A DNA stretch of 64,000 nucleotides, from positions 1 to 64,000 of the IMG/VR virus record IMGVR_UViG_3300033463_000032; one strand, written 5' to 3'. Positions 20,512 through 41,556 of the stretch are shown here, in pieces. The stretch comes from a virus (taxonomy: Duplodnaviria; Caudoviricetes). Positions within the stretch are counted from its first letter, which is position 1. The number at the start of each line of letters is the position of its first letter. The position numbers were made by a program, and so were the translations under genes. Below the pieces are notes generated by a model. It was not told the DNA's origin and ran no database searches. It worked only from the letters and a program-made list of their open reading frames with translations.

Positions 20512-20575
20512 TTAGATAGATACCTGTCTATATGTTAAAGTATAGATGGGTATCAATGTATTATAGGTGGTTCAT

Positions 20576-21808
20576 ATGATAACTGTTTTAAATGAAATGG
20601 CTTGGATAGATTACAATGCTAATAAGGACAATGCTGTTAGAAAGGATTGTACTATCAGAGCATTATCTTTAGCCTATGACATTCCATATGAGAAAGTATC
20701 TAAAGAGTTCAGAGGACATGCTAGAGGTGAAAAATATCAATTCAATACTAAAGATAATTTGGAATGGTATATTTCAGAACATGGATATGAAGGTAAAGAA
20801 CCATTTGTTTTATCAGAACCAATGACAGTATCTGAATTTGAAGAAACACATCCAGATGGTACATATTTATTACTTACCGGAAGAGATGCTGTTTCTGGTC
20901 CTTCTTATGGAGCATATTACAGTCATATTGTTTGTTGTATCAATGGTAATGTTTATGATTCTTGGAATTCAGAAAATCAATATGTTAAGTATGTATGTAC
21001 TGTAGATGCCAATCATTCAGATCAAATAACTTCTGAAAGATATTCAAAAGAAGAAATAGAGTATCTTACTAAGCAAGTACTAGAGTTAGCAGTAAGGGAT
21101 TATCTGTTATCCAGAGATGGTAAGGATTTTAATTTAATCGATTATCAAGGTATCATTATCTATAGTGATAATACTCAATATAATTTTTACTACACCACTT
21201 ATATAAAATATATCAGAATTCCTAATGTTACTTGTTTTACAATTCGTTGTTCTGATCTATACACTTGTACTATTTACTATAAGATCAATACAGTTGCTGC
21301 TAAAGAAACGCCTATTTTTTTAAGTAGTGCTTTAAAACAAGAAGCACATGAAGGAACGATAGTTATTAAGTTTTCACCTAAGATGAATAATGATGATATT
21401 GGAAAGGAAATAGAAAAGAAAGTACCATCTGGTATAAAGAAGTTAGCCAAATTATTAACCAGTGAAGAAGAACTATATAGTAAGGCTACATCTGGCAGTA
21501 TGTGGGATGAATTTCCTTTATTAAACTATGATGCTTGTTATGGTAATGATAATCAGATTTATAAGTTATTAAAGAATTGTAGTGATGGTATTAAAGAAAA
21601 TGTAATTAGTGTTGAATATTCTAGTTATAACAAGGAATGGGATGTAATGATAAAACCAGATCCTAGTATTACTAAGTTTAATAAGATTCATTTGTTTGGT
21701 AAAAATGCTAAACAGATAAAAGCTTGTTATGATGACTATATGAAAGAAGTACAAGAAGGTAAGGTGTGGAGCAGTTATTACTATTATGATTTCATAAAGG
21801 GTGATTAA
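20576..21808 (+). CDS. MITVLNE-leader protein with N-terminal papain/C39-like domain
   Basis: DCTIRALS...HIVCC..G.VYDSW (Cys/His/Asp). Confidence 0.6.
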   Translation: MITVLNEMAWIDYNANKDNAVRKDCTIRALSLAYDIPYEKVSKEFRGHARGEKYQFNTKDNLEWYISEHGYEGKEPFVLSEPMTVSEFEETHPDGTYLLLTGRDAVSGPSYGAYYSHIVCCINGNVYDSWNSENQYVKYVCTVDANHSDQITSERYSKEEIEYLTKQVLELAVRDYLLSRDGKDFNLIDYQGIIIYSDNTQYNFYYTTYIKYIRIPNVTCFTIRCSDLYTCTIYYKINTVAAKETPIFLSSALKQEAHEGTIVIKFSPKMNNDDIGKEIEKKVPSGIKKLAKLLTSEEELYSKATSGSMWDEFPLLNYDACYGNDNQIYKLLKNCSDGIKENVISVEYSSYNKEWDVMIKPDPSITKFNKIHLFGKNAKQIKACYDDYMKEVQEGKVWSSYYYYDFIKGD

Positions 21809-21809
21809 T

Positions 21810-21974
21810 ATGATTGAAATACAGATTGAAGATTATTACATTCCTATGAAAGATTTTGATAAGTATGCTAAAGAAAGGGAAAGGTATCTTAATTCTATTG
21901 ATAAGGAATGTGGTACACAGTTTACTGTTAAGAACTGGAAACAGGTAATGAAGAAAGGGGATTCTGATAAATGA
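21810..21974 (+). CDS. Small protein (MIEIQIE leader)
   Basis: Read by eye; GGGTG RBS. Confidence 0.55.
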   Translation: MIEIQIEDYYIPMKDFDKYAKERERYLNSIDKECGTQFTVKNWKQVMKKGDSDK

Positions 21975-22492
21975 AAGATTTAGATTATGAAGATCATTTT
22001 GATGATAAGGAAGATGAGATAGAACCGGAAGAAGATGGTTACGAAGAAGATGATGTGCTTTTAGAAGAAGCTCCATATACTAACAAGGATCTTGCTTTAG
22101 CAGTAGTTGATATGTTTAATAGCGATCAAACTGAAATGTGGGAAGTTGCCGTATATGATCTTCTTGATTCCGGATTATTAGATGATATGTCTGATATGGA
22201 TTATGACAGATGGATAACAGATAATGATTCATCAGTCATTCAAGATTATATTGAAGATAATCCAGATATGGCCAAAGAGATCTTTAAGGTTGTAGCAAAT
22301 GCATATGGTTATAAGAATTATACAGACTATAAGACTTATAATGACTATGTATCTACAGAAGGTGAACAAGAAGAAATAGGAGCATTTAGGGAAGCAACTA
22401 ATTGTGGTGCTGTTGCTAATGTACCAGGAAAACATATTAGGATTGATATAGATGAAGATGAATATGATATTCCTGATGAACTGAATGATTAA
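21971..22492 (+). CDS. Highly acidic hypothetical protein
   Basis: ORF track. Confidence 0.7.
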   Translation: MKDLDYEDHFDDKEDEIEPEEDGYEEDDVLLEEAPYTNKDLALAVVDMFNSDQTEMWEVAVYDLLDSGLLDDMSDMDYDRWITDNDSSVIQDYIEDNPDMAKEIFKVVANAYGYKNYTDYKTYNDYVSTEGEQEEIGAFREATNCGAVANVPGKHIRIDIDEDEYDIPDELND

Positions 22493-22703
22493 ATATATTA
22501 ACATTTTCTTTTTTATATGATATAAAGGACTTAGAGAATATCTTTTCTTTATTTATATATTAGGACATTTAGAAATCCTAATTCTAAAAATAACCAATTA
22601 AATAACTCCTAATGATATATGGCGCAATATAACTAACTACTTTCTTAATCTCCTCCTTCTACTTAAGAAAGTAGTTTAGTTATATTTAATTGAGGTGGAT
22701 GGT

Positions 22704-22979
22704 ATGAAGATTAATTTAAGTGAAGGGAGTTCAACATATCCGGTTCCCTGGATGGATTATTATGTTGACATAATGAACCTTTTAGATCATGTTGCTTTAA
22801 GTGACAGAGATCTTACGGAAGAAGAAATTGACAGATTAGAATTTTTATCAGACCATGGTGGTGGAAATATCCCGGATATAGCTGATGCTAATGATTGTGG
22901 ATATTGTGATACCTGGGATGATCTTGTTTATGCATTAAGGGATTTACATAGAACCGGTGAAAGAATTTCGATTAATTAA
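22704..22979 (+). CDS. Acidic protein (MKINLSE leader)
   Basis: GAGGTG RBS. Confidence 0.65.
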   Translation: MKINLSEGSSTYPVPWMDYYVDIMNLLDHVALSDRDLTEEEIDRLEFLSDHGGGNIPDIADANDCGYCDTWDDLVYALRDLHRTGERISIN

Positions 22980-23014
22980 AAATAAAATATAAAATAAGGT
23001 AAAGGAAAAGAAAT

Positions 23015-23341
23015 ATGGACACACTTTCAAAAATAATCGATATTTGTCTTGCTGCTGGATTACCGGTTCTGGGTGGTGCAATGTGGATTGGTTTTAAGAT
23101 TGTTATTAAGAATGTTAAAGCAGTTAAGCTAGGTACACAAGCATCATTAAGAAATTCAATGGTACAGATGTGGGAAACCTATTCTGCATTAGGTTATGCT
23201 CCTATTCATGTTAAAGATGATTTTGAGAATGTATATCAGAATTATCACGCATTAGGGGTTAATGGAGTAATGGATAGTTTAAGAACAAAGTTTCTGGAAC
23301 TTCCTACCAGTCCTGATGATAAGACAGGTAATTTAGGATAA
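23015..23341 (+). CDS. Membrane-anchored, holin-associated-type phage protein
   Basis: N-terminal TM; LR....Y...GY......ENVYQNYHALGVNG motif. Confidence 0.6.
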   Translation: MDTLSKIIDICLAAGLPVLGGAMWIGFKIVIKNVKAVKLGTQASLRNSMVQMWETYSALGYAPIHVKDDFENVYQNYHALGVNGVMDSLRTKFLELPTSPDDKTGNLG

Positions 23342-23353
23342 GGAGTTATATAC

Positions 23354-23779
23354 ATGCTTAAGGTAGAAATTGAAACAACTAGAAAAGGCATAGATCAAAG
23401 AAGAAAGGATCTTTATGCCAGAACAAGACAGAAATTATCAGATATTGGTGATAGAGAACCCACTAATCTTGCCAGAGATTTAAGAGGTATCTTACCGGAT
23501 AATGATTATGATAATTATCGTAGAGAAACGGAAGAACTTAATTGTATTGATATGATCCATTCCATTCTCACATATTCAGATCCTAGTACTTGGACCGTAG
23601 ATGATATAATGGAAAACAGATACATAAAAAAGTACATTGATATATTAGGTAAGATCAGAGTTGCTACATTAATTCAAAAAGAGATAGCTGAATATATGGA
23701 TGTTGAAATAACCAAAGATACCTACATAGATAGTGAAGGTGTAGCATATAATTCAGTAAGGTTTAAAGATGATATTTAA
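23354..23779 (+). CDS. MLKVEIE-leader protein, paralog of the N-terminal domain of 39466-40485
   Basis: Shared CIDM.HSILTYSDP.TWTVD.I and Y.DSEG..YNSVRF.DD. Confidence 0.75.
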   Translation: MLKVEIETTRKGIDQRRKDLYARTRQKLSDIGDREPTNLARDLRGILPDNDYDNYRRETEELNCIDMIHSILTYSDPSTWTVDDIMENRYIKKYIDILGKIRVATLIQKEIAEYMDVEITKDTYIDSEGVAYNSVRFKDDI

Positions 23780-23796
23780 TAAGGTGGTAGTATTTT

Positions 23797-24114
23797 ATGA
23801 AACTTTATTTCACAGAAACAGGATTAGATAATATTTCTACTTGGCTTACCGGAACAGCAGCACAACAATCTACTGCTACATTTACTGAAACTGATGTAAT
23901 GGAAAAGACTTATTCATTTGACCAGTTAGATCAGGTATATGGTTTTATGGGTGAATGGTCTAGTGCTTCAAATGATCGTAAGAAAGAGATTGTTGCTATC
24001 CTTAATACATGGTATGTTGCTACATCTATTCCTAGTGCTGATGATATAGAAGATATGTATCATCAACAGATAATTAATGCTAGAGATAACTATACTTTAG
24101 GTGGTATAGTTTGA
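23797..24114 (+). CDS. Hypothetical protein (MKLYFTE leader)
   Basis: ORF track. Confidence 0.65.
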   Translation: MKLYFTETGLDNISTWLTGTAAQQSTATFTETDVMEKTYSFDQLDQVYGFMGEWSSASNDRKKEIVAILNTWYVATSIPSADDIEDMYHQQIINARDNYTLGGIV

Positions 24115-24207
24115 TTTTTGATATAAAAAGCAATGGATCTGATATATTCTATTGCTTTTATTTTATATATTAGAATTATTAATTTGTTTAAAAGGAGAAT
24201 AACTAGT

Positions 24208-24417
24208 ATGGTTAGAATTACGTTAGACGAAAGTAAAGCAATTGATGAGAGCAAGGTTATTATGCCTAAGTCTTATATTTCAAAGAAGATCCAGGATTTA
24301 AGTGATAGGGATTTTAAGAGGGTACAGGCTGTTTATGATATGGAAGGTACTGATGACTATGATTTATTATCTCCAGATGCTAAACTCCAAGTTTCAAGAA
24401 TTGTAAGAGGTTTCTAA
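24208..24417 (+). CDS. Small protein (MVRITLDES leader)
   Basis: AAGGAG RBS before ATG 24208. Confidence 0.65.
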   Translation: MVRITLDESKAIDESKVIMPKSYISKKIQDLSDRDFKRVQAVYDMEGTDDYDLLSPDAKLQVSRIVRGF

Positions 24418-24419
24418 TT

Positions 24420-25079
24420 ATGTACGCAAGAAATAACAACTCAGGTTATTTATCCGGTGATCCTAATGATTATCTTTATATGGATATTGATGATGCTTTT
24501 TCCGGATATAAAGAATGGCTTACTTATGATGAAATGCGTAAAGAAGCCAGTGGTTTGAAGTATGATTGTTTTACTGATGATACCTGTTATGGATATAACT
24601 GGGATTATGATATGGAGCATTACATACCTGCATTAAAAGAATATGCTAATGCTACATTCTATAATGATCAAAAAGGTGAAGTTGATTTCTTTGATATGTT
24701 CAAACAAGAACTTTCTTATGGTGATTTCCCAGATTTTGAAGATGATGAATGGTGGGATTATGATAATGAAATCATTCAAGAAGGTGAAGATCGATATAAT
24801 TACGGAAGTAATATAAAAGATACTGCTGAATTTGAAGAACAACTTCGTGATGCTCTTTTAGTAGATGATGATATTCAAGAATTAGCTAAAAATGCTTCCA
24901 TTGATTTTGAACAATTCTGTGATGAAATTGCTTGGGATGTATGTAATTCAGGATATAATTTCTTGTTAAGAGCAAATATAATGTCACCATCTTATAGAGT
25001 TGAAGTTGGTGGACAGCACTATGATGTAGATGCTGATCTTGTTTGGGATATAGCACAAAGTTTAGCAGATGTATATTAA
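24420..25079 (+). CDS. Highly acidic hypothetical protein (possible DNA mimic)
   Basis: D/E/Y-rich. Confidence 0.65.
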   Translation: MYARNNNSGYLSGDPNDYLYMDIDDAFSGYKEWLTYDEMRKEASGLKYDCFTDDTCYGYNWDYDMEHYIPALKEYANATFYNDQKGEVDFFDMFKQELSYGDFPDFEDDEWWDYDNEIIQEGEDRYNYGSNIKDTAEFEEQLRDALLVDDDIQELAKNASIDFEQFCDEIAWDVCNSGYNFLLRANIMSPSYRVEVGGQHYDVDADLVWDIAQSLADVY

Positions 25080-25098
25080 TTATTAAGAGGTGAATAAT

Positions 25099-25866
25099 AT
25101 GTCACATATAAGTATTTATCTTACCAATCTCGGTAAATACAATGAAGGTGAACTTGTAGGTGAATGGGTAGACCTTCCAGTATCTGATGAAGAACTCCAG
25201 GAAGTCTATAAGAGAATTGGTATTAGTGATGAACCGGATGAAGATGGTAATTACTATGAAGAATATTTCATTACTGATTATGAATCTGATATTCCTGGAT
25301 TACATATTGATGAATATGATTCTATTTCTAGTCTTAATGAATTAGCAGAGGCAGTAGATGATCTTGATGATTATGATCTTAAGATCTTTAAGAACGCAGT
25401 AGAAGCTGGTTACATTGATGCTGATGATATTGCTGATTTTGATCCTGATGATTTCTATCTTTATGAAGGTGTAGATTCTGATTCTGAATTAGGTGAAATT
25501 ATTATAGATGAACTTTACGGTTCTCCATCTGGATTGGATTCTGATACTCTTGAAAGATATTTTGACTATGATGCATATGGTAGAGATATTCGTTTAGAGT
25601 TTGATCCGTATTCTTGGGTTGATGATGAAGAAGAAGCTAAAGAACGTTTTGGTGTAGAAGATATTGGTGAGATTGATGCATATGATTATTTTGATGTTTC
25701 AAGTGATTATGCATTAGGTGAACATTTTGTTGATAATCTCTACGGTAGTCTTTCTGAATTAGGAAAAGACACATTGGAAAAATATTTTGATTATGATTCT
25801 TATGGTAGAGATTGTGCATATGATGGTTGTTATACCGAAGATGGTTTTCTTTGGGATAGGAGATAA
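25099..25866 (+). CDS. ardA: Antirestriction protein ArdA with duplicated C-terminal module
   Basis: IYLTNLGKYNEGELVGEW.DLP, YEEYFITDYE, YFDYD.YGRD twice. Confidence 0.9.
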   Translation: MSHISIYLTNLGKYNEGELVGEWVDLPVSDEELQEVYKRIGISDEPDEDGNYYEEYFITDYESDIPGLHIDEYDSISSLNELAEAVDDLDDYDLKIFKNAVEAGYIDADDIADFDPDDFYLYEGVDSDSELGEIIIDELYGSPSGLDSDTLERYFDYDAYGRDIRLEFDPYSWVDDEEEAKERFGVEDIGEIDAYDYFDVSSDYALGEHFVDNLYGSLSELGKDTLEKYFDYDSYGRDCAYDGCYTEDGFLWDRR

Positions 25867-25869
25867 TGT

Positions 25870-26070
25870 ATGAAAACATATAGTCTTTCTGTAGATCAAA
25901 TGAGGAATATGCTAGTAAATGATACAGCAGTAGTATCAGAAGAAGCAGTAGATCTTGTTTGCCAGATCAATGGTTATTCAGTAGATACAATGTATGACAT
26001 TTTATATGCTACTACTGGATATAGATCTTTTGGTCAATTAGCAGAAGAGTATGGTTTAAATGATTACTGA
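25870..26070 (+). CDS. Hypothetical protein
   Basis: ORF track. Confidence 0.6.
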   Translation: MKTYSLSVDQMRNMLVNDTAVVSEEAVDLVCQINGYSVDTMYDILYATTGYRSFGQLAEEYGLNDY

Positions 26071-26079
26071 TAGGAGATA

Positions 26080-26337
26080 ATGTTTATGACAGTTAGTGAT
26101 TTTTTAAATACCTGTGAGTATATAGACATTCCGGTTGGTATACTTGCTCAAACAGATGATATGGATATTTCATATGGTACAGATGAAGTGATCTTTGATT
26201 GTGAATCATATCCATGTGATATCCCGGAAAACCTCTTAAGTCTTGAAGTTGATTTCTTTATTGTAGAAGAATATCAAGGTAAGACTTATTTTAAGATCTT
26301 TACAAATGGATTAGCATCTAAACTTAGAAGATACTAA
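26080..26337 (+). CDS. Acidic hypothetical protein
   Basis: AGGAG RBS. Confidence 0.6.
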   Translation: MFMTVSDFLNTCEYIDIPVGILAQTDDMDISYGTDEVIFDCESYPCDIPENLLSLEVDFFIVEEYQGKTYFKIFTNGLASKLRRY

Positions 26338-26355
26338 TTAGAAAGGAAATAATAT

Positions 26356-26571
26356 ATGATTGAAGTTATAAACGAAGCAAATAATCTGGTTACAACAGAT
26401 GAAGAGATCATTCTTAAAAAGGGTCCTTGGACTTTAATAGCAGATACCACATTTGGTGATACCAATGAATATCTCATTCTTAAAGATGATGATGTTGTAA
26501 TGTCGGTAAGAGCTGATTCAGATGATAAGGCTATTGAAAGATTTAACAGATACCTTCAAAGAGGATATTAA
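26356..26571 (+). CDS. Small protein (MIEVINE leader)
   Basis: AAAGGA RBS. Confidence 0.65.
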   Translation: MIEVINEANNLVTTDEEIILKKGPWTLIADTTFGDTNEYLILKDDDVVMSVRADSDDKAIERFNRYLQRGY

Positions 26572-26594
26572 TTTAATGAAAGGTTGTTCATACT

Positions 26595-27071
26595 ATGAAG
26601 ACTATAAATAAGAATAGTGCATATGCATATCTCAATAGGATCAAAACAGAAAGTAATGGTAAGATAAATGTTTCTCATATGATGCATAAAGTAGCAGAGA
26701 ATACAGAAGTACCTACAGAAGTATTGATCTTTATTAACAGACATATAGGTTTACCGCAGTTATTCACATACAATGAGATATATGACAGAAGAAGAACATC
26801 ACCATTGTATAAGAACCTGGTAAATGAAAATCTGGATGATGAAAATAAGGCCATTGCTTTAAGTTCGTTATTAACACAAACATTCATACATTCTAAGCAA
26901 TTAGTAAATGAAGGAAAAAGATCAGATGCTATAGAATATGCTGAGATTATGAATGTTTCCACTATTACAGAAGCATTGAATGAGTATGCTGCCGGAGATC
27001 CTAAAAAGTTAAATGAGGTTTTCCAAGATGTTAGGAAAGTCTTTAAATATTTAGTAAATGAAAAAGCATAA
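26595..27071 (+). CDS. Hypothetical protein
   Basis: ORF track. Confidence 0.7.
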   Translation: MKTINKNSAYAYLNRIKTESNGKINVSHMMHKVAENTEVPTEVLIFINRHIGLPQLFTYNEIYDRRRTSPLYKNLVNENLDDENKAIALSSLLTQTFIHSKQLVNEGKRSDAIEYAEIMNVSTITEALNEYAAGDPKKLNEVFQDVRKVFKYLVNEKA

Positions 27072-27085
27072 AGGAGACTATATTT

Positions 27086-28163
27086 ATGTTAGTAGATGAA
27101 GTATTTGAAGCTATAGTTAATGAATCCGGTGAAGGCCTTAGTGATGAAGAGTTTCTTGATCTTATGGATATGCTTTTAAAACAGGCGAATACACTAGGCA
27201 GACATTACCAAACTGTAGGTGAATGGATTGATGAGTGTGTTGATGAGATTAGAGAAAATTTGGAAGGAGAGTATTAATTATGTCATATGGTAATATAACA
27301 CCAAAAGTTTATGAACAATGTAAGAAGGTTTATAAAGAACTTGATACATTAATTAAGCTTATAGGATTGGAATATGATTTTGATTCTGATGAATATATCT
27401 GTACTAACACAGATCAGGTAGATGAAGATTGGTGTGATAGAGAAATGTTATCAAGTATTGATACTGCATATGCTGATCTTAAATATTTTTTAAGTTAATG
27501 GAGAATAAAGAACATGGATCATTACAAATTTGAAGATGGTGAATATTTAGTTATTCTTTCTGATGAAAATGGAGACTATGATTGTTATACTTGCAATTCT
27601 GAAATAGAAGTGTTTGAGGTTCTTTCAAAAAGAATATTAGATGAACTGGAATATTTATTTTATGAAGAGGCATTTACAGATGAAATTTTCTGGACTGCTG
27701 ATGATAAGGATTTTGCAGAAACCATTAGGAACACTGGCGTAATTAAAGATTATGATGTAATTAAAGATGCATATGAAACATTCTTTGCTGATGGTTGGTC
27801 TTATCTTGTTATGGATGATTATGGTAGTGTTATTGCATCTAGGAGAATTTAATTATGAAAGATTTTAGTGTAAAAGGTAAAGATGGTTATTATTTCCTTA
27901 AGAGTAATGATGAAGGTTATTATCTTGAAACAGATCAGCATAGATATGATTTTTATGAATTAGTTCCTATAGGAGCAACAAAAGATATTACAAGTGATAT
28001 GGTTATGATTGTTTGTGATGATTATGATAAAAATCCAGATTCTTTTACTGAAATCATAGGTTGGGAATTTGGAGCTTTGGATTTTCCTAATACATATTCA
28101 TGGGATCATATTGCAGAAATGATAGAAAACTATGAAAAGACTGGTAAAGCAATGAGGATTTAA
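27086..28163 (+). CDS. Four tandem small acidic genes (27086-27277, 27280-27498, 27514-27852, 27855-28163)
   Basis: ORF track; GGAG RBSs; tightly packed. Confidence 0.65.
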
Positions 28164-28165
28164 TT

Positions 28166-28549: not shown

Positions 28550-28555
28550 TAAAGT

Positions 28556-29362: not shown

Positions 29363-29479
29363 GGATATAGCCAAATTATGCTCTAGGATCAATTCTAAGA
29401 CGTTCTAGAGCATTAACTATAGAATTAAGTATAATAAACTTAGAAGTGCTTAGAAACGATTTTAGAAAGGAAATAGAAG

Positions 29480-29827
29480 ATGATTGATATTTTGAATGAA
29501 TCTAAAAAAGAAACGATTAAATATAAACTTTATGATGAAGTTTATGATTTAGGGTTATATACTGATACATATGCAGGTAATGGTAATCTATATATAGGAT
29601 TAGTTGATGCAGAAACTGGTGAAGAGTTTGCTGATCTTTCAATTAATATAGAACCATTACCGGATGACTGTATTTGTCTTAGTGATGATTTCCGTAAAGA
29701 ACACATAGCACTTATTAAGAAATACAAATTAGGTACATTTACAGGTGAATATGCTTATAGTGGTTATGGCCAATATCCTATTTATCAGATGAATATGGAT
29801 AATGTAAGAAAATACCTGGTTAATTAA
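29480..29827 (+). CDS. DUF4313-like protein (MIDILNES leader)
   Basis: Y..NGNLYIGL....GE.FADLSINI...TG....SGY..YP. Confidence 0.65.
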   Translation: MIDILNESKKETIKYKLYDEVYDLGLYTDTYAGNGNLYIGLVDAETGEEFADLSINIEPLPDDCICLSDDFRKEHIALIKKYKLGTFTGEYAYSGYGQYPIYQMNMDNVRKYLVN

Positions 29828-29847
29828 ACAGAAAGGATTACTAGAAT

Positions 29848-30678
29848 ATGCTTAAAGTATTTATTGAAGCTGATAAGAGTGAAGAATTTGATACTACATT
29901 TGGTGATGTAGATGATATTCAACTTACCGGAGATGTAGAAAAGGATTTTGATACATTGATCGATACATTACAGCAAAACAGTTTTGAAGAACTGGGAGAT
30001 GAGCTTAATGATGTAGTTAATGATCCTAAACTCTATGATCTTCTTTCTATGGGTTTTGGTGATGGTGAGCTTGCTGATGTTAAGATGAGTTCTACACCTA
30101 CAAGTCTTTATGTTACATCTTTACTTCCATCACAGTCTGAAATCGGTTTGGATAATTCTCTTTCTTATCCTCTTAAGCAAGATTGTTCACATTTGTTTGT
30201 AGATGAACCGATTAAGATCGTAGCACCTATTGTTACATATAGAAAGACTTTCATTGTTGACGGACACCACAGATGGTCCCAGTTATATATGATCAATCCT
30301 AATGCTAAGATTGAGGCTATTAATTTTAACTATGAACAACCATCACCTTATAGAGCATTAAGGAATTTCCAGGGAGCTATTGCCGTTGCTAATAAAGATG
30401 TACCTAAGTCTTACAGCAAGGTAAACAATGTATATGAAATGTCAGAAGGTGCTATTAGAAAGTATGTTGCTGCTAACATTCAAGATGTATGTTGGAAATC
30501 TTTAGTTAAGGTTGGTGTATGTAAGGATAAAGAAAGTGCTATTGATTACATCACTAAAAATGCAATGACTTTGAAGAGAGATAACTTTCCACCTGCTAAT
30601 GCACCAGATAGAGAGTATATGCCACAGACTGATGATAAGTCTATTAACATTGCTAAAAAAGGACAAACTAATATATGA
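29848..30678 (+). CDS. ParB/Srx-like domain protein (MLKVFIE leader)
   Basis: L.PSQSEI...IVDGHHRWSQ. Confidence 0.7.
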   Translation: MLKVFIEADKSEEFDTTFGDVDDIQLTGDVEKDFDTLIDTLQQNSFEELGDELNDVVNDPKLYDLLSMGFGDGELADVKMSSTPTSLYVTSLLPSQSEIGLDNSLSYPLKQDCSHLFVDEPIKIVAPIVTYRKTFIVDGHHRWSQLYMINPNAKIEAINFNYEQPSPYRALRNFQGAIAVANKDVPKSYSKVNNVYEMSEGAIRKYVAANIQDVCWKSLVKVGVCKDKESAIDYITKNAMTLKRDNFPPANAPDREYMPQTDDKSINIAKKGQTNI

Positions 30679-31049: not shown

Positions 31050-31057
31050 GAGGTGAT

Positions 31058-33814
31058 GTGATGGTAGTTTTTTATAACACAAGGAATTTACCCAGACAGG
31101 ATTATACGATCATATCTTATATGGATAAGCCGGGAAGATGGACTGGTCAAGCATTGATACAACATTCAATGAATCCAATGTATACACCTGAAAGAGAAAT
31201 AACAGCATATCAACTGGAAGGTGAAGATGGTGAAGTATACTGGGTAGATGCTAATACATTATTAATGGCTATGATGCACCATAGTATTTCAATTACTAAT
31301 GGTAGAGTTGTAGGATATACAATTAGATATTATTAATTTGTGAGGCAAAAGATTATGATTGAACGTAAATGGTATGTAGGAGAAGATCGTCAAGGTGGTT
31401 CATTTGGTATGATTTATGGTTCTATGACTGCTGATGAGTGGTTAGACGTTGCTACAGGCTGGATGGATGATGACGGTGCTTTTGATGATGAAGATGGTGA
31501 AACTGAGGAAGAATATAGAGCATACTGGCAAAAGGTAATTGATAGAGATCCACAAGAGTTTATTGATTATTTTGATGATGCTTGGGAACTTACAATGGTT
31601 GAAGGTGAAAAACCAAGAGATCTTGAAGATTATAGTAATCTGTATTATCTGGCTTGGTATAACGGAGAACAGTTTAATGAATATGATTATGAAGAAGATG
31701 CTATTACTGATCTTAAGAACACAATAAACAACCAGATTAAAAAAGATCCATATCAGATTGATTTTTCTGAATGTTATGTAGAAAGTCGTCTTGTATGGGA
31801 TGAAGATGGTAATAGTGCAGAAGTTTGCTATATAGCAGATGGTGATCCAGAATATTCAAAATATATTGAATAAGGAATAAGTTTTATGATCAGAGTAATA
31901 ATAGAATCAAAAACATCTATAGAGGATTTAATGATTTTAGTATTTAGAAATGAATATGAAAATTGTAATGATACTGGTAAGAAGATGTTTAATGATGATT
32001 ATCCGGATTGGAATAATAAAGAAAATATCCGTAATTACTTTTATAATGCATTTGAAGTAGAAGATGAAATCAAATCATATTTCAGATTAGCAGATAAGAA
32101 AGATAAGAAAGGATTACAAGAATTATTAGATCTTGGAACATTACCACCTTATGAAACTTATTTAGTAAATGCATTGTTAAGTGTTATTAGTTAAGGAATT
32201 GCTATGATTAGAATTTTGATTGAAGAACAAAATCATCCAGAACTAACATGTATTTCTTCTGTAGAGTATGAAGAAATAAAAGAGGATTTGTTAAAAGATG
32301 CTCAAGCATTTTGTAATTATAATGGCTATTGGTGTGTTTGTGTTGCTATAAGAAAGTTTCCAAATTGGTATTTAGTTAATTTAGATACTGGATATCTTTT
32401 TACTGCTAACTCTTTAGAAGAGTATAGACACACTTTAAAAGACTGGGGTTTTTCTGAAAATCTAGTACAGTCTGTATATGGAAAGCAAAATGATTTTGAA
32501 AATAAATAATAAAGGAGAAACATAACACATGGATAGAGATGAACTTATTCGTATTGTAGAAGAATTTAAAGCAGATAAATACCCGGATGGTGTGTATGAA
32601 ATCTATGCTGACTATAGGGATGAACTTTCTGATAAACAAGCATTAAAGATTATCAAATCTAAAGATCCTTCCACTACATTCTATGAAATTCTTGAAGAAA
32701 GTTATCTATACACAGATTCTTATTATCAAGATGCTTTAGACAAAGAATTTGAAGATTGGTGTGAATATCATGATTATGATGTAACCATTGATGATCTTCG
32801 TAGTGAAGATGTTTATCTGGATGAATACATTACATTTGAACTTCCATATGACCATTTCTTAGATCAGGAATATTACTGTAGATTGATCGTGGATAATGGT
32901 GATGCTAATTATGATTTCACCAGAAATCCTAACCAGGATAATGGTTATCAGATTGAAAGTGGAGCAGGTATTATCTGGTTAGGTGAACAGTTAGGATATA
33001 CAGTAGAGCAGATGCAACAAGCATTAGATTCTGCTATTAATCCTGATGAATATCCGATAGATCATAAGTTAGGTAAGGATAAGTTCTTAGACAGTCTTAT
33101 TCAAGAAGCAGCAAATGCATTTGGTTGTCCGGCACTTACATTCCTTTGTAAGATGAGTCTTAAGGATTTGATTAAAGTTGCAGAAAACCATGCAGATGTA
33201 AAAGTAGAACTCAATGATATGGGTTGTGGTTTCTTTGATGGTTACAATGGTGGTGGCAGTGTTCTTGAACTTGAATGTGGTAAGAAAGATATCATCATAC
33301 CAAATGATAAGATCTATCAGCTTGTACCGGATATCAAATGTAATGGTATGTATTCGGTAGATGAAGTATATGGCCTTTGGAAAGGTGCATATGCTGATGC
33401 AGAAGCTATTTAATAAATAAAGGAGAAAACAGTATGATTACGTTTTTAAAAGAATTTGTAAGTCCGGAAAGAGAAGAAGCTTGGAAACTTATAGATAAGT
33501 ATCAAGAACGTGAATTTGGTGAAGTTCTTTATTCAGAAGGTGCTAGTGCGATTCTAGTAATGGCACTTCCTTTTAATACATATTCTGAGTTTGATGATGA
33601 AATGTATGAAGGTACATGTAGTGCTATCATAGACCTTATGCATTACACATTAAATTTTACAGCTTATGATGCAGCAAAGGATAAAGATTTTTATGATTCT
33701 ATTCAATATAATAATCTTGAAGATATGATTAACAAACTCCTTAAGCCTATGGCAGATGGTAAAATCACAGAAGAAGATTTTAAAGATCTGTTAGAAACTC
33801 ACATTATAGTTTAA
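31058..33814 (+). CDS. Six tandem hypothetical genes (31058-31336, 31340-31873, 31886-32194, 32204-32509, 32529-33413, 33434-33814), mostly acidic, four with the leader
   Basis: ORF track; RBSs; MRQKIMIE, MIRVIIES, MIRILIEE, MITFLKE starts. Confidence 0.65.
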
Positions 33815-33846
33815 TAGAAATTACCAAATACTATAAATAATAAATA

Positions 33847-33884
33847 AAACCATATCTTAGTAATTTACATTAAGGTATGGTTTT
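33847..33884 (+). terminator. Hairpin terminator
   Basis: AAAACCATATCTTA...TAAGGTATGGTTTT. Confidence 0.6.
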
Positions 33885-34006
33885 AATAAAATAAAAGTAT
33901 TAGGAGTTATCTATATGTCAGAAGAAGAACTGGAAATGTTTGTTACCAGATATTTAGATGAGAAACATGAAGAAACTAAATCTGAAAATATGGAGAAATA
34001 AATAAG

Positions 34007-36833
34007 ATGGTTAAGATTAATTTGAATGAAGATATTAATTCGTATTCATATACAGGACCTGGATTTGCTGATGATAGAATTGACTTAGCAAGCTTTTCAA
34101 ATGATGATGGTTATGTAGAACTAGTTAATGATGGATTTGATTGCTATGTTACTTCTCAATCATTCTTAGGCGATTATGACTTTTATCGTGAATATAAAAT
34201 GTCTAATATTGATGCTGCAATTAAAGATTTTAATACAGAAGTAAAGCATTTTGGAGATACTAGATCTCTTACTCGTAGATTTATAGATCAAGTATTATCT
34301 GAATATGGTAAGTCATTAAGTGATTATGAACCTGGTGGTTTTTATGATAATTTAAGAAAGGGGAAATAAAGATTATGATTACTAAAATTCCATTAAATGA
34401 ATGGAATCGTGGAGATTTTAATGGTTTAGGAACTTCTAATGATCCTAATGATAAAAGAACTAATTACAAGTTTACAGATCTGTATATTCCGGGTAATGAT
34501 GCTGCACCAGATGAATTATTCCAACAAGTAATGAATAATTACATTACAGATCGTGGAGAGTTAGAATCCATTCAGAAGATTCTTGAAAGAAATGGATGGA
34601 AAGAAGAAGCCAAAATTGTTGGTTACTTTATTGATGAGATTGATGAAGAAAAACAGTATGGTGATGATTATTCCATTAGTAGAATGAAGATTGATATTGC
34701 TGATGATTATAAACATGCTGGGTTTAAAGATGCTACTTGGGGCAAGGTAGAATGGGGATTAGATTGTTACTTAGATGGTGATTATGTAATTATTGTTCTT
34801 ACTGATCCAGAAACCTGGGAATCTGATAGCGATAGAGTACCAGTTGAAGAATTTATGAATATGACTAGAGATGACTTTGATAGTTGGGTAGGTCAATTGC
34901 GTTTTTATGGTGATTTTGAACCAGAGGAAGAAGAATAATTAAGGAGAAACTAGTTTATGAATGATACTTATAATTCTGATCTTCAAGAAGCAATTGATTT
35001 AATAACTGCTTATTATGAAGTAGAGTTTGGGGAAGATGTTGATTATCCAAATGAATATTCTTCCGGTAGTGATAATGTTTATCCTCTAATGTATACATCT
35101 GTAGATGGTTCTGATGGATATGAGCATGATATCCAGGTAAGTGCAGATTTAGATGCTTCTGAAATGGTTTATTACGTTGATAATGCTATAGTTTATAGAC
35201 AGAGATATAAAAATCTTCGTGAAATGATCGATAAAGAATTATTTGATTTTGAAGAAAATGCAGATCAGATATTTGATTACTATTATGGTAAGTGTATTAG
35301 ATTTGTAGATTAATGATAGGAGAAATGTTTTTATGTACCAGGAACATTATTTTGAAGTAACTAATTGTGCGTTTCGTACATATCTTTATGATGAAACTGC
35401 AAAAGATAATCGTGGAGATAGAGTAGCCTATTGGTACCCTACAGGTAAGAATAGAATAAGCCGTAATTCTTTTGTAGACTGTGTAAAACAATACATATAT
35501 GCTCCTTTTTCGGAAAATCCTACAGATTGGCAATTTGATAGCGAAAGGAATAAGATAGTGATTTCTGTATTATCTTCCCGTCCTTGTGGTTCATATGCCA
35601 GAGATGGTTTTGCTAAGAAACCTACTAAAAAGGAACTTGCTGATTTCGAAAAAGGTAAAGGTGAGTTGTATATAGTAGAATTTGAAGCAAATGTAGAAGA
35701 AATCTCTATCACTAGCATTACAGAAGAACTTGCCAGAGCAGAAGGTCTGGAAATAATATAAAAATAAACAAGCCTTAGATTGAGTTCTAAGGCTTTCCTT
35801 GTAGGAAATGACTGATTATATTAATTTCTATAAGGTAAGTCTTAGAAAGGCAAATAGAAAGGAATTAGGTTATGATTACTGTTCTTAATGAAAGTAATAT
35901 TAAGCATAACGGTGATGGTACAGTTTGGTGTACTTGTATAAAGTGTACTTATAATGAACCATTCAAGATGCGTAAACATAAAGATCCGGACTTTGGGAAT
36001 GTTGAATGGTATGCAGTATGTCCTAGATGTGGAACTGAATATACAGAATTGTTAGAAAGATGAGGTAATAGAATTATGGATGAACAGGCTGTAAAAAATA
36101 TAATTCGTGATACAATGGCATGGAAACTGACAGAAGAAACCATTAATGGTAAAAAAGTTTGGTGTTATTCCAGAGGTAATGGCGATTATATACCAGTTAA
36201 ATATATTTCCGAAGATGAAAGAGATATATTAATAAATAGTTGTTGGGATGATGTTGAACTTGAACTTGGTGAAATAGATGACATAGACCTTTTTGATGAT
36301 TGGTTTGATGATGTTTTCTATGATGAATTTATGTAATTCTTAAGAGGTAACTAATTATGGCAAGAATACATCTTAATGAAGATTATGATGATTTATATGA
36401 TCTTGTGAAACAATCACAAGATGATGAAATATATGATATCACTCAAGGTAAAATAAAGGATTATATTGATGACCAGGGTAGGTATCTTGATGACGAAGAT
36501 ATCTTGGATGAAATCTTCTGGGAAGATATTGATGATGGTCTGGCATATGATATTGCTAATTCCTGGGTAGATAAACAAAAAGAAGATCCTACATTCATAG
36601 ATAGAATTTATGAAGAAGGTGCTAAGGATTTTGAGAAAATCTGGAAAGCCTTTTTAGATAAGTTTGATGAAATCACCATACAGGGTGAAGATTATGTGAG
36701 AATTGATTCCTTTAGCACATGGTTCTTAAATGGTGATGATTATGATGATCTTTTAGATAATAAAGATGAATTCATTAAGAAACAAATTCAAAGAGTGTTA
36801 GAAGATACTAAAGATCTTACAAAGTATATGTAA
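34007..36833 (+). CDS. Seven tandem hypothetical genes (34007-34369, 34375-34938, 34957-35313, 35333-35761, 35872-36063, 36076-36336, 36357-36833)
   Basis: ORF track; MVKINLNE, MITKIPLNE, MITVLNES, MARIHLNE starts; 35872 is a Zn ribbon; 34957 resembles 33434 (EA..LI..Y...EFGE). Confidence 0.65.
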
Positions 36834-36834
36834 T

Positions 36835-38259
36835 ATGGAAAAATATCTGGTAGAAAATTTAGAAATACATGACACATTAAATCCTAAATTGTGGGATTCT
36901 AATGATAAGCTTATTCCTGATGTAAGGGATAAGATATTAGAAATAGTGGAAGAGTTCAAGAAGAATGTTAAGGAAATGACTGATCTTGAACTTAATCCGC
37001 TTGATATTTATATTGTTGGGTCCAATGCATCATATAATTACACAAGTCATTCTGATGTAGATGTTCATATAGTAATTAATTTTGATACCATTGATGAAAA
37101 TTCCGGGTTAGTTCAATCACTTATGAATTTTCAAAAATCAAGTTTCAATAGTGGATATGACATATCTATTCATGGTATTGATGTAGAACTTTATGTTGAA
37201 GATCTTAATTCTACTGCTTTAAGTAATGGTGTATTTTCCGTTATGCAGGATCAATGGATTAAGAAACCGGAAAAGATAGAAGTAGAAGAAATTGATATCA
37301 ATGATGATGTTGATGAATGGAAAGAAAAAATAAATGCTGCTTTAGATAGTAAATCCGCAGATGATATTGGAAAAGTAATTGATGATCTTTATATTCTTCG
37401 TAAGAACTCCTTACTAAGTGGCGGTGAATTTAGTGAAGGTAATTTAGTTTTTAAATCTATACGAGATTTAGAGTTGTTGCAAGACCTTAAGGATTCGTAT
37501 ACAAAATTAAGATCCAAAGAACTTTCTCTTGAGAATTGGAAGAAGCCACATAAGGTTACTGAGGTTTTTTCTGCATATATAGGTCGTTATGTTGAATGTC
37601 CTAATTGTGGATATGATACTGTTTATATTGGAACTGTTTCAAATGATGGTGCGTTAGTTGTATGTGATGAATGTGGTACAGAATTTGAACCATCATTAAT
37701 TGTGAATGATCAAGGTAAGACAGAGTTAAAGTTATTATCTTTAGAAAAGAAAGGAGTATCAAAAGGTATGAAGATAAATCTTACCGAAAGTGTAAATGAT
37801 TTGTGGTTCAATTCTATTGAAAGAGAAGAAGAAGCTATACCAGATGCAATTCAATATGGTGTATCTGATAGTAAGATTGATAGAATGATTAGTACTTATG
37901 ATAATGTTGTAAGACTTCTTAAGGCTAATAGATCAGAAGTTGTATTTACTACCATGTATAACATAGATGATATAGTAGCACCTGATTTCCTTAGAAACTT
38001 TAAACCAGTTAAGACTATTCAGAAATACAACTTAACATTAAGAAAAGATGATAAAGGAAATCAAATTGTTACAGAACCATCTTATGGTACTATGACACTT
38101 TATTTTGCTAGTGAAGATATTGCTAAAGATATTATTAGTCAATATGAATTTGACTGGGATAATTATGATGATGAATATACACCTAGTTCCACTTATGGAG
38201 ATTATAGCCCTAGTGATCCCTGGAACGCACCTGGAATGTCAAAACAGGACTTTATTTAA
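36835..38259 (+). CDS. Pol-beta-superfamily nucleotidyltransferase + Zn ribbon + extra module
   Basis: IVGSNASYNY...SDVDVH, DVELYVED; CPNC...CDEC; internal MKINLTES at 37768. Confidence 0.8.
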   Translation: MEKYLVENLEIHDTLNPKLWDSNDKLIPDVRDKILEIVEEFKKNVKEMTDLELNPLDIYIVGSNASYNYTSHSDVDVHIVINFDTIDENSGLVQSLMNFQKSSFNSGYDISIHGIDVELYVEDLNSTALSNGVFSVMQDQWIKKPEKIEVEEIDINDDVDEWKEKINAALDSKSADDIGKVIDDLYILRKNSLLSGGEFSEGNLVFKSIRDLELLQDLKDSYTKLRSKELSLENWKKPHKVTEVFSAYIGRYVECPNCGYDTVYIGTVSNDGALVVCDECGTEFEPSLIVNDQGKTELKLLSLEKKGVSKGMKINLTESVNDLWFNSIEREEEAIPDAIQYGVSDSKIDRMISTYDNVVRLLKANRSEVVFTTMYNIDDIVAPDFLRNFKPVKTIQKYNLTLRKDDKGNQIVTEPSYGTMTLYFASEDIAKDIISQYEFDWDNYDDEYTPSSTYGDYSPSDPWNAPGMSKQDFI

Positions 38260-38293
38260 TAAATAATAAATTTAATTATAAGGAGTTTTTATT

Positions 38294-39031
38294 ATGGGTT
38301 ACACTAACTATTGGAAAAGAACTGATAAAGAGTATGATAGTGATTTTGTCGAACTTGTAAAAGATGTATATGCAGATTGCAAGAACAAGGGAATTACTTT
38401 AGGTGATAACTGGGGAGAAGGTGAACCAGTTGCTGATCTTTTGGAGATTGCTTTTAATGGTGACGCTTCTAAAGATTTAGATCATGAAACATTCTATCTT
38501 CCTAATACAGATAATGAGTATTTTAAAGAGGGTTTTAATTTCTGTAAAACAGCAGCTAAACCTTATGACTATGCAGTAAAGGAAGTACTTAGACTTGCTG
38601 AGAAGTATGGATATGTTACTGATGTATCTGATGATGGTGAAGTAGATATTATTTCTGATGCAGAGTATTTAGGAGAATCATATTAGACAGAGAGTAAAAG
38701 TCTTAAAGAGTGGAATGATTGGAATATAGAAGCAATGACTGGTTATAAACCAAAGACTACATTCTATATGGATTTTTCTATTGCAGACAGATTTGGTGCT
38801 AATGCAATTAAAGATACATACAATAGAGCTATGAGAGAGTGGATAGATGATATTGAGTATGTAACTGAATTGTATATGGTCCTTAACTGGAAGATTTGGG
38901 AGCATTATGAAGATAACCCTGAGTATGGTGAACTTTATCAAACTCTTTGGGATAAGTGTGAAAGAGAGATATCTAAGCATTATAGAAATGATAAGGAAGC
39001 AATGAATTATTTTTATAAGACAACAGATTAA
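38294..39031 (+). CDS. Two in-frame ORFs (38294-38686, 38735-39031) separated by one TAG
   Basis: Linker after the TAG is open and reads TESKSLKEW. Confidence 0.65.
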
Positions 39032-39043
39032 GTGAGGTAGCAA

Positions 39044-39469
39044 ATGATTACTGTATTAGAAGCTACAAAGAAACCAGATTTCTTATCAGACATAAATGGT
39101 AGAACTTTTTGGAGAAGATATGCACCAGATATGCAGGAGTTTTCTAGGAAGTTCAAAAGTTGGGTAAAGAAGATCGCAAAAGAGAATGGTTGGGAAGTAG
39201 TAAATTATGGTTATTCTGTAGACCATTTTTCCGGGTTCTTTAAATGTGGTGATACATATATATATTTTGCATATGATCTTCCTTGGGAAGAACCAGTAGA
39301 TGTAACATTGCCTGGAGCTCATTATGGTGTTCTTTATAGAACTGCTAAAGATGATAAAGATTATACAGGTGGTCATAATTGTTTTAGCAGCTTAGAAGAT
39401 TTCCCGGAAGATGTAGCATTTGAAATGAACAGGTTACTTAGAATAAAAGAAAGGAATAATACACTATGA
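39044..39469 (+). CDS. Hypothetical protein (MITVLEA leader)
   Basis: LYRTAKDDKDYTGG.N motif. Confidence 0.7.
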   Translation: MITVLEATKKPDFLSDINGRTFWRRYAPDMQEFSRKFKSWVKKIAKENGWEVVNYGYSVDHFSGFFKCGDTYIYFAYDLPWEEPVDVTLPGAHYGVLYRTAKDDKDYTGGHNCFSSLEDFPEDVAFEMNRLLRIKERNNTL

Positions 39470-40485
39470 TTACTATTCTTAATGAAACAACAAGAAAAGA
39501 AATAGATCAAAGAAATAAACAGATGTGGAATGATATCAGACAATCATTGAAAGATCATGGTGATTCTGATTGGAATAATGCTATTGGTTATATGAATAGA
39601 CTTCCTAAAGAGAAGTCAGATGAGTTTTATAGGTACAGCAGAGAAACTGCTTGTATTGATATGTTGCACTCTATTCTTACTTATTCAGATCCAGAAACCT
39701 GGACAGTAGATAATATTCTTAAAGATCATTATATGCAACAGTATATTAAAGAGTTGGGAAAGGATACTGTAGCGAATCTTATTCAACAAGAAATTGCCGA
39801 GTATCAAGATGCTACTATTGATTATAATTCTTATACAGATAGTGAAGGCCTTTCTTATAACTCTGTAAGATTTAGGGATGATAAATCATATAAAAGAGAA
39901 TCAGTACATACAGATTTAGTAGACCAATTTTTTGCAGATGTTCAAGATGTTGTAGATTATTTTAGATATCACAATAAGAATCTTAATAAGACACAAGATT
40001 ATCTTTTATACGATTTGGAAGATGCTTTAGATAGTAGATCAACATTAGCAGCGAGAGAAGCAATTGCTAATTTGAAGAATCACTCTAAAGGTATGAATAA
40101 CACGCAAAGTTCTATGATTGAAGAATTATATGGAGAGTTATTTGCTAGTGGTGAATACAAAGATATTGGTAGACCATCTTATGATGAATCATATAAGAGA
40201 GAATCAGTTGATGGTAAGCAAACATTAGCAGATTGGATATCTAACCCTAGAAATCAGAGAAGATATGGTAATGATGAAATAATGGTTGTTTGTATGAACC
40301 CTTATTTAGATGATCCTGATGATTGTCCGGGAGTACTGTTTGATGGTACATTTGATGAACTTAAGAACGGTACAGGTGATAATTATATTTCTGATAGTTA
40401 TGATATTTGGGTGGTAACAGGTACTACTTATAAGAGATATGGTGGTACTGATTTCCTTGAAATTAGTGTTGATTCTATTCATTAA
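39466..40485 (+). CDS. Three-module protein (MITILNE leader; SYKRESV linkers)
   Basis: SYKRESV occurs twice, between unrelated modules. Confidence 0.7.
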   Translation: MITILNETTRKEIDQRNKQMWNDIRQSLKDHGDSDWNNAIGYMNRLPKEKSDEFYRYSRETACIDMLHSILTYSDPETWTVDNILKDHYMQQYIKELGKDTVANLIQQEIAEYQDATIDYNSYTDSEGLSYNSVRFRDDKSYKRESVHTDLVDQFFADVQDVVDYFRYHNKNLNKTQDYLLYDLEDALDSRSTLAAREAIANLKNHSKGMNNTQSSMIEELYGELFASGEYKDIGRPSYDESYKRESVDGKQTLADWISNPRNQRRYGNDEIMVVCMNPYLDDPDDCPGVLFDGTFDELKNGTGDNYISDSYDIWVVTGTTYKRYGGTDFLEISVDSIH

Positions 40486-40507
40486 AAAGTAAGTGAGGTA
40501 GTGAGAT

Positions 40508-41419
40508 ATGATAACTAATTTAAATGAATCTGCTAACTATGATACAAAGCTAATTGCTAAGTGGCTTAAAGCAAAGTTTGATGATGAAGCATTTGGTACA
40601 GCAAAAACAATGCATGGTACATCAGATGCAGAGAGATATATGAACAGAAATAATCTTGTATATAATTCTGCTACAAAGATAGTTGGTGTATATCAAGGTA
40701 GTGATTGGAGAAATCCTACACCAATTTATAAAGTAATTCCTCAGTATGGTTCTAAGAAAGTACAAGGTACTTATGCACCTAAACTTCCTAAAATCATACC
40801 TATTGATGAGTACAATTCTATGTATGGTGAATCATATGTGAAAGAATCTTCACATACAGATTTAGTTAATAAGATATATTCAGTAATGGCAAATTATGAA
40901 TATGGTTATGATCCTGATATGTCTGATATAAATGCTATGCTACAAGAATTAGTCATAAATAATGGAATAGATGATATTAAGTCTAATGCATTTAAAAAGG
41001 CTTGGATTTCAGCTCATAATAAAGCAGAAAGAAAAGTTTGGGGCAGATCAGGTGATGCTATGAAATATGACGATCTTACTCCTGGTGAACAAGATGCTAT
41101 AGATAATTTTGATGAAGATTATTGGAAAAGATGGCGTAAACACTCAAAAACTGAATCAAAGAGATTGGTTAAAGAATCTTTTGATGATGATTGGACAGTA
41201 TCAACAACTTCTCAATTTTATGATGGTAGAAAACAAACACTTAGAAAGTTTACTAGAGAACTAGATGGTCATAAAATTCTTGTATGTCCTAAATACAATG
41301 AAAAATTTGATCAGATAGACTGGACTGTTTTCTTAGATGGTGAAAAGAAAGAAGTTTTTGAAACATCATATGATGCAATAGACTTTGTAGATTATGAATT
41401 AGCAGACTTGTATCTTTAA
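40508..41419 (+). CDS. Three-module protein (MITNLNES leader; ESYVKES and TESKRLVKES linkers)
   Basis: ORF track. Confidence 0.7.
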   Translation: MITNLNESANYDTKLIAKWLKAKFDDEAFGTAKTMHGTSDAERYMNRNNLVYNSATKIVGVYQGSDWRNPTPIYKVIPQYGSKKVQGTYAPKLPKIIPIDEYNSMYGESYVKESSHTDLVNKIYSVMANYEYGYDPDMSDINAMLQELVINNGIDDIKSNAFKKAWISAHNKAERKVWGRSGDAMKYDDLTPGEQDAIDNFDEDYWKRWRKHSKTESKRLVKESFDDDWTVSTTSQFYDGRKQTLRKFTRELDGHKILVCPKYNEKFDQIDWTVFLDGEKKEVFETSYDAIDFVDYELADLYL

Positions 41420-41462: not shown

Positions 41463-41556
41463 AATCTATGTTCTAAGGCTTTTATTAAAAAGATAGGAAA
41501 AGTATCATAAGAAGAATTAGAAAGCATTAGAAACGAAAATAGAGGGGTTACAGAGT

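Follow-up and report, generated by a model that had tools for sequence, protein, structure and literature searches.

Why should more than half of the genes packed between the portal and prohead-protease genes of a single phage, encoding otherwise unrelated proteins, begin with the same few amino acids? The question is raised by the 64,000-nucleotide stretch of DNA analyzed here (the window), which is the first half of the 128,410-bp virus record IMGVR_UViG_3300033463_000032 (Duplodnaviria; Caudoviricetes), a genome of ~32% GC that has direct terminal repeats, is rated complete, and carries nearly all of its genes from 1 to 77.8 kb on the + strand. A sequence-only reading of the window had listed ~25 unrelated proteins, encoded between positions 20576 and 41419 (the array), that share a short N-terminal leader ending in glutamate, and had proposed that this leader directs them into the capsid for injection with the DNA. 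We are highly confident that a modular N-terminal tag exists, and by analogy with phage T4 we lean towards the view that it acts as a T4-style capsid-targeting sequence (CTS), which would be clipped by an S77-family prohead protease and would mark injected proteins.

With gene starts selected by their Shine-Dalgarno (SD) context, 22–23 of the ~41 + strand genes in the array start with M-(I/L/V)-x-(V/I)-(L/I)-x-E, in which the glutamate falls at position 6–9, mostly 7. The tag is more frequent in the array than elsewhere: a loose version ([ILVF]-x-E ending by residue 10) heads 20 of 41 array genes, compared with 13 of the 140 genes in the rest of the genome (Fisher p = 1.3e-7), and a strict, strand-like version heads 18 of 41 compared with 4 of 140 (Fisher p = 2.9e-10). 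The strict tag pattern was found at 11 N termini and at only 5 internal positions among 35,624 residues, a ~400-fold specificity for the N terminus. Given SD-based starts, the previously listed N termini were found where they had been placed, and the proteins are unrelated at the BLASTP level except for one pair. The count of ~25 is lowered somewhat: MEKYLVE is borderline, and for MRQKIMIE (31340) the start was probably called wrongly, as an SD supports a start at 31355 and the orthologue in a relative with 87% portal identity (L044) starts MSERKWY, without a tag. Among the tags listed outside the array, MISVLES (1398) and MKVFIE (6607) held up, but MKLTLLEE (4705) lacks an SD. The tagged genes are as follows, with a slash after the glutamate that ends each tag:

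20576 to 21808, + strand: MITVLNE/M, 410 residues; homologous domain from about residue 9 (phrog_3754), with an endopeptidase-like N-terminal domain as a weak lead
21810 to 21974, + strand: MIEIQIE/D, 54 residues
22704 to 22979, + strand: MKINLSE/G, 91 residues
23354 to 23779, + strand: MLKVEIE/T, 141 residues; paralogue of the N-terminal part of 39466
23797 to 24114, + strand: MKLYFTE/T, 105 residues
24208 to 24417, + strand: MVRITLDE/S, 69 residues
26356 to 26571, + strand: MIEVINE/A, 71 residues
28166 to 28549, + strand: MITVLE/S, 127 residues
28556 to 29362, + strand: MLRVIIE/K, 268 residues (phrog_30118, E 9e-33)
29480 to 29827, + strand: MIDILNE/S, 115 residues, DUF4313 (PF14190, E 2e-17)
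29848 to 30678, + strand: MLKVFIE/A, 276 residues
30675 to 31049, + strand: MIKVKLE/H, 124 residues
31886 to 32194, + strand: MIRVIIE/S, 102 residues
32204 to 32509, + strand: MIRILIE/E, 101 residues
33434 to 33814, + strand: MITFLKE/F, 126 residues
34007 to 34369, + strand: MVKINLNE/D, 120 residues
34375 to 34938, + strand: MITKIPLNE/W, 187 residues
35872 to 36063, + strand: MITVLNE/S, 63 residues
36357 to 36833, + strand: MARIHLNE/D, 158 residues
36835 to 38259, + strand: MEKYLVE/N (borderline), 474 residues; nucleotidyltransferase domain and zinc ribbon (phrog_36119, E 9e-37; weak Pfam nucleotidyltransferase matches)
39044 to 39469, + strand: MITVLE/A, 141 residues
39466 to 40485, + strand: MITILNE/T, 339 residues
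40508 to 41419, + strand: MITNLNE/S, 303 residues; last gene of the array
1398 to 1667, + strand (outside the array): MISVLE/S, 89 residues
6607 to 7005, + strand (outside the array): MKVFIE/T, 132 residues

Is the tag a feature of the protein or of the DNA? The codons of the tags differ synonymously (ATA/ATT/ATC, GTT/GTA, TTA/TTG/CTT), and the flanking and upstream DNA is not conserved, such that selection acts on the peptide, in agreement with the sequence-only reading. This makes it highly improbable that the shared starts are a signal at the level of nucleic acid, such as a context for translation initiation or a cassette by which recombination would shuffle the starts of genes. The A/T-rich codons that follow the ATG would suit such a signal, as would a motif in the 5′ untranslated region, TTAGAAACGA, that is shared by three units; however, the amino-acid pattern persists while synonymous codons change, the L044 orthologues change conservatively at the peptide level, and the pattern is missing from other genes, although the genome as a whole is AT-rich. 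The motif itself is found at 29392–29460, 41527–41536, and 51930–51997, lying 30 nucleotides upstream of the array gene at 29480 and of a head gene at 41557, and 70 nucleotides upstream of 52058. Two of the three TTAGAAACGA sites also share ATTCTAAGAC further upstream, and together TTAGAAACGA/ATTCTAAGAC may be a common regulatory or processing signal; three sites are too sparse for TTAGAAACGA to define a temporal class.

Might the proteins instead share their start by descent? All-against-all BLASTP of the tagged proteins returned a single paralogous pair, 23354 and the N-terminal part of 39466 (53% identity), and with one pair only, paralogy of the tagged proteins was rejected at the BLAST level. 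Pfam and PHROGs searches left most of the array proteins without annotation, and an atlas structural search returned no match for the 40508 protein. Of the cargoes that had been named from the sequence, a ParB-like protein was dropped when these Pfam and PHROGs searches of the array proteins found no ParB-like domain, and a peptidase-like protein was reduced to the weak lead for the 20576 protein, which comes from atlas structural matches.

The DUF4313 protein (29480) offers the best-documented case of a tag added to a known family. Scored by HMMER against all 1.84 billion cluster representatives, it matched 301 proteins; a word-indexed homologue search returned only 2. The homologues usually align from their own residue 2–5 to residue 11–14 of the query, such that the 29480 protein has an N-terminal extension with a median length of 9 residues. 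Tag-like starts were present in only 2 of 149 DUF4313 homologues, and a relative with 80% identity starts MITPLNES. In an AlphaFold (AF2) model made from a 56-sequence alignment, with a mean predicted local distance difference test (pLDDT) score of 93.7, the fold begins at residue 13, and residues 1–12 form a coil of lower confidence. A Foldseek search of the PDB with this model found no match. Likewise, the nucleotidyltransferase (36835) and the 20576 protein share conserved domains with phage homologues only from about residue 9–12 onward: the conserved domain of 36835 begins near residue 12, and for 20576 two rows out of three in the atlas show structural matches that start at residue 9. 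A low-confidence model of the 39466 protein also leaves residues 1–8 unstructured. Judging from the homologue comparisons and the confident DUF4313 model, the leader appears dispensable for the fold, and the tag is a modular add-on, grafted onto unrelated domains and predicted to lie outside their fold.

These results bear on the idea that the shared start is either an ordinary first β-strand of small proteins or the remnant of a common ancestry among fast-evolving paralogues. The tag is indeed hydrophobic and strand-like, one paralogous pair is present, and many array proteins are orphans, which would allow for distant paralogy beyond the reach of BLAST. Nevertheless, in three families with homologues elsewhere the tag is not part of the conserved domain, and it also lies outside the predicted fold; it is nearly absent from the other 140 genes; and neither a strand nor ancestry explains the invariant glutamate and the small residue that tends to follow it. 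We regard this explanation as quite improbable.

Homologues of the array nucleotidyltransferase were seen in T4-like cyanophages with the starts MNLES (DSL-LC03) and MKKLISE (S-CREM2), and in a Lak phage with the start MELNE (loci L010:1495-2208, L011:1501-2214, and L013 near 1501). Because these hydrophobic-x-Glu starts stand upstream of the conserved nucleotidyltransferase domain, members of this family may also serve as capsid cargo in further T4-type phages.

What, then, might recognize a peptide that ends in glutamate? In T4, the prohead protease gp21 cuts after the glutamate of L/I-x-E (PMC9026906), and the internal proteins IPI, IPII, and IPIII have been described as carrying a CTS that gp21 processes (Mullaney & Black 1996; reviews PMC9026906 and PMC3012670). 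The CTS comprises the first 10 residues of IPIII, with targeting assigned to residues 4 and 7 and processing to residues 8 and 10, and the N terminus of gp21 itself holds a conforming site, LIE-9 (PMC9026906). In the window, the residue at P3 of the tag (counting the invariant glutamate as P1) is L, I, or V in 18 of 23 cases and F in 2, and the other 3 have I or L at P2. The residue after the glutamate (P1′) is S, A, T, or G in 13 of 23 (p = 7e-4). By motif agreement, the leader thus would end in a prohead-protease site of the L/I-x-E type.

The same type of site recurs in the putative partners of such a reaction. Within the protease protein, the scaffold half contains LAES, ITES, LNES twice, and LSES, which bears out the earlier remark that the scaffold is full of LxES sites: 4 occurrences of L-x-E-S were observed compared with 0.5 expected. 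The broader pattern [LIVMF]-x-E-[SA] was observed 5 times in the scaffold domain of the window phage compared with 1.7 expected, and 10–13 times compared with ~2.4 expected (p ≤ 0.0007) in the scaffold domains of three cultured relatives, phages GXN1, HSE3, and SP-15. The capsid propeptide holds KMVE/S, CLE/N, and KAFE/A, such that scaffold and capsid propeptide share candidate cleavage sites. The protease protein, noted earlier to start with MSILLTE, does so and bears a tag-type site at its own N terminus; in four phages the protease N terminus has a hydrophobic-x-Glu site within 7–10 residues of the start. The match to a protease site type also stands against the notion that a modifying enzyme recognizes the tag, as happens in systems that resemble those for ribosomally synthesized and post-translationally modified peptides or that are linked to radical S-adenosylmethionine (radical-SAM) enzymes. 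The tag has only 7 residues, and the complete genome contains no Radical_SAM or SPASM domain. We find this notion barely credible; a radical-SAM/SPASM-linked tag was rejected outright, with no PF04055 or PF13186 match in the complete genome.

A T4-type head module with a gp21-family (Peptidase_S77) protease surrounds the array:

15421 to 18513: large terminase with an intein
18694 to 20511, + strand: portal, T4 gp20 type, the upstream boundary of the array (PF07230 Portal_T4, E 2e-53)
20519 to 20554, + strand: hairpin with a 15-bp stem, directly 3′ of the portal gene
41429 to 41462, + strand: hairpin with a 15-bp stem, directly 3′ of the last tagged gene
41557 to 41922, + strand: small gene between array and protease, MNDNILE/I, with I-L-E at residues 5–7 (phrog_15594); possible head or core component
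43793 to 45361, + strand: prohead protease (S77, gp21 family), with the protease domain at about residues 1–180, in fusion with a long coiled-coil scaffold; N terminus MSILLTE/K (PF03420, 35.7 bits; phrog_207, E 7e-32)
45389 to 51062, + strand: major capsid protein, gp23 type, in four exons

The protease is assigned by family match, with a PF03420 score cutoff of 27 bits; PDB sequence searches with it did not reach T4 gp21. The array was described as lying between portal and protease, and it does lie there, but not next to the protease: in between are two small genes with no tag or a weak one, and a free-standing GIY-YIG/NUMOD3 endonuclease gene (42631–43776, between the small head genes and the protease). 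The two hairpins flank the array on both sides.

Other features of the module were noted in passing. The terminase intein bears an HNH endonuclease domain (PF14890, E 5e-21), and relatives have terminase inteins too, some of them also with a portal intein. The capsid gene has exons at approximately 45389–45590, 46790–46891, 47978–48613, and 50535–51062, and its three introns each contain a gene for a homing endonuclease, of GIY-YIG type at 45792 and 47139 and of HNH type at 48794. Directly 3′ of it are two adjacent paralogous small genes (51145–51348 and 51367–51753, starting MASIDYSSV and MAVIDYSNV), whose products are possibly decoration proteins.

Does the tag extend beyond this one genome? 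DNA searches of the phage collection, in both near and distant modes, found no match, and an IMG/VR portal scan found relatives at ≤35% identity only. A portal search returned hundreds of metagenomic relatives, and the nearest cultured relatives by portal (34–41% identity) were Streptococcus phage GXN1, Bacillus phages SP-15 and HSE3, and Listeria phage LIS04. In L044 the array is syntenic, the orthologues retain the tag with conservative changes, and there are three more tagged genes that the window phage does not have. Relatives with 55–63% portal identity carry different tagged proteins, and their portal-to-protease gap ranges from 6 to >20 genes. Applied to relatives with 55–87% portal identity, a tag model trained on the window found tags in 9 of 84 downstream genes compared with 1 of 71 upstream genes (p = 0.02). 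Among the cultured phages, GXN1 has four genes (record positions 98803, 132585, 132841, and 134401) starting MRL(V/I)(K/R)L(N/T)E(S/D), three of them beside the capsid gene; beyond the tag they are essentially unrelated, their sole similarity being a weak 41-residue match (E = 0.009) between two of the genes that includes the tag. HSE3 has two adjacent tagged genes, at 12927 and 13195. By these comparisons, the tag system is common to the phage lineage.

The Thornevirus phages (SP-15, HSE3, and LIS04) have ribonucleotide reductase genes at the same portal-protease junction, which marks the junction as a plastic site. Two metagenomic relatives have leucine-rich-repeat proteins of ~1000 residues at the position of the tagged array, 3′ of the portal after one short ORF (L046:11963-15025 and L048:11988-14933), and two have TnpB/IS605 OrfB-type genes just upstream of the portal (L047:4781-5869 and L051:8748-9851).

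The T4-like leader proposed at the outset, removed by a gp21-family protease, fits every indirect test (portal, S77 protease, add-on tag, scaffold sites, and relatives), although the ParB-like and DNA-mimic glosses put on its cargo did not survive. By analogy with T4, tagged proteins would associate with the core of protease and scaffold while the prohead is being built on the portal, and the S77 protease would cut after the glutamate of the tag, as it would in the scaffold and the capsid propeptide. The mature proteins would remain inside the head and reach the host together with the DNA, as a first wave of effectors, perhaps with a role against host defenses.

Several observations weigh against this scheme. 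MIEIQIE, MLKVEIE, and MIKVKLE have their hydrophobic residue at P2 instead of P3, and orthologues of 21810 are tagged in L044 and L046 but untagged in L047. Depletion of internal cleavage sites in the candidate cargo is a trend only (p = 0.15). The candidate cargo is acidic, with a median isoelectric point (pI) of 4.6 for the mature tagged proteins, unlike the basic IPII and IPIII of T4; the median is 4.05 for the untagged array proteins and 5.3 for the rest of the genome. The sole recognizable anti-defense gene of the array, ardA, encodes an untagged protein, as do the genes for the most acidic, DNA-mimic-like proteins:

25099 to 25866, + strand: ArdA anti-restriction protein, untagged, net charge about −61 (PF07275, E 2.4e-37, 129 bits against a cutoff of 27)

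Promoter scans did not help: matches to sigma-70-type promoters are scarcer than expected in the array and equally so in the presumed early block, and thus have nothing to say about expression timing, and a scan for the T4-type late promoter TATAAATA revealed no strand bias and no placement. A literature search for virion proteomics or cleavage data on this phage or any relative found none.

The four hyper-acidic untagged proteins (21971–22492, 24420–25079, 31355–31873, and 32529–33413) have net charges of −35 to −43 and a pI of ~4.1; together with ArdA they are candidate DNA mimics. The acidic, DNA-mimic-like proteins had been counted among the tagged cargo, a claim that falls with the lack of a tag on any of these five. 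Their being untagged indicates that the array is not uniformly cargo and probably also contains early proteins that act in the cytoplasm.

It is here that another view gains most, in which the tag serves for docking to, or processing by, a shared partner that is not the capsid interior. The protease might clip the tag late to activate or inactivate the proteins, or the tag might dock them to some other common hub, without packaging or injection. The evidence is for a modular tag resembling a protease site and is silent on where the proteins go, the untagged ArdA suggests early cytoplasmic action for some array genes, and the candidate cargo is acidic. Nonetheless, no role other than capsid targeting is known for tags of this kind in gp21-family systems (PMC9026906), the prohead protease works inside proheads, the tag also heads the protease-scaffold protein, and the tagged genes of GXN1 are in the head module. 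We consider a partner of this kind unlikely, and continue to favor a T4-style CTS.

The internal proteins (Ips) of T4 are non-essential, and their leader presumably differs in its residues from the tag described here. It differs in length as well, at 10 residues (PMC9026906) compared with 6–9, mostly 7, such that the tag appears analogous to the T4 CTS in its logic, without demonstrable homology. In both systems a short N-terminal leader ending in hydrophobic-x-Glu heads otherwise unrelated proteins, the genes occupy a variable hotspot, and the genome encodes a gp21-family protease with a conforming N terminus, a portal of gp20 type, and a scaffold in which sites of the same kind abound. T4 has three Ips, whereas this one genome has ~22 candidates, known from sequence alone and encoded between portal and protease by a 21-kb array that lies within the head module. 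The proteins here are acidic instead of basic, the protease is fused to the scaffold, and the relatives are of Firmicutes type.

The polymorphic ip loci of T-even phages are likewise hypervariable, with unrelated genes recognizable by their leader alone (Repoila et al. 1994, as cited in PMC12373910 and PMC3012670), and here too gene content varies between close relatives (the window compared with L044, L047, and L048). Unrelated T-even Ips share only the leader, with ~10 known across the T-evens and three in T4 (PMC12373910, PMC3012670). Each of the three Ips of T4 acts as an inhibitor of GmrSD type IV restriction enzymes (PMC12373910); the array differs in scale and genomic position and has no demonstrated counterpart to the GmrSD targets. 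In the giant phages phiKZ, 201phi2-1, and SPN3US, a diverged gp21 homologue also cuts many head-internal proteins after glutamate, and the packaged and ejected proteins are numerous, but they have long propeptides instead of a uniform short tag, include many paralogous families, and are documented by mass spectrometry (PMC5694885, PMC7411985, PMC10052503). An N-terminal signal of phage P1 DarB suffices to load this anti-restriction protein into the capsid; however, the Dar proteins have no common consensus, ~30 residues are used, and no gp21-type cleavage logic is described (PMC9024508). The concept of tagged internal proteins is thus already established for T-even phages, and what is notable here is the brevity of the tag, the size of the repertoire, its position in the head module, and the Firmicutes-type lineage.

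Should the tag act in the manner of the T4 leader, the proteins that this phage injects with its DNA could be listed from sequence, and the list would be ~7 times longer than that of T4, made up almost entirely of unknown families, and subject to turnover between close relatives. We would not go so far as to expect, but think it possible, that the lineage loads at least 20 different proteins per capsid by means of a single seven-residue tag, and that their injection amounts to a first strike with a combinatorial arsenal. The hosts of the cultured relatives are Streptococcus, Bacillus, and Listeria, for which we found no such system in the literature searched. A seven-residue tag would be the shortest known capsid-loading signal; it would serve as a computational label for injected effectors in Gram-positive-type phages and as a minimal, transferable signal with which such phages could deliver proteins. 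In T4, the injected proteins are exactly those that disarm first-line defenses, in the form of GmrSD restriction enzymes.

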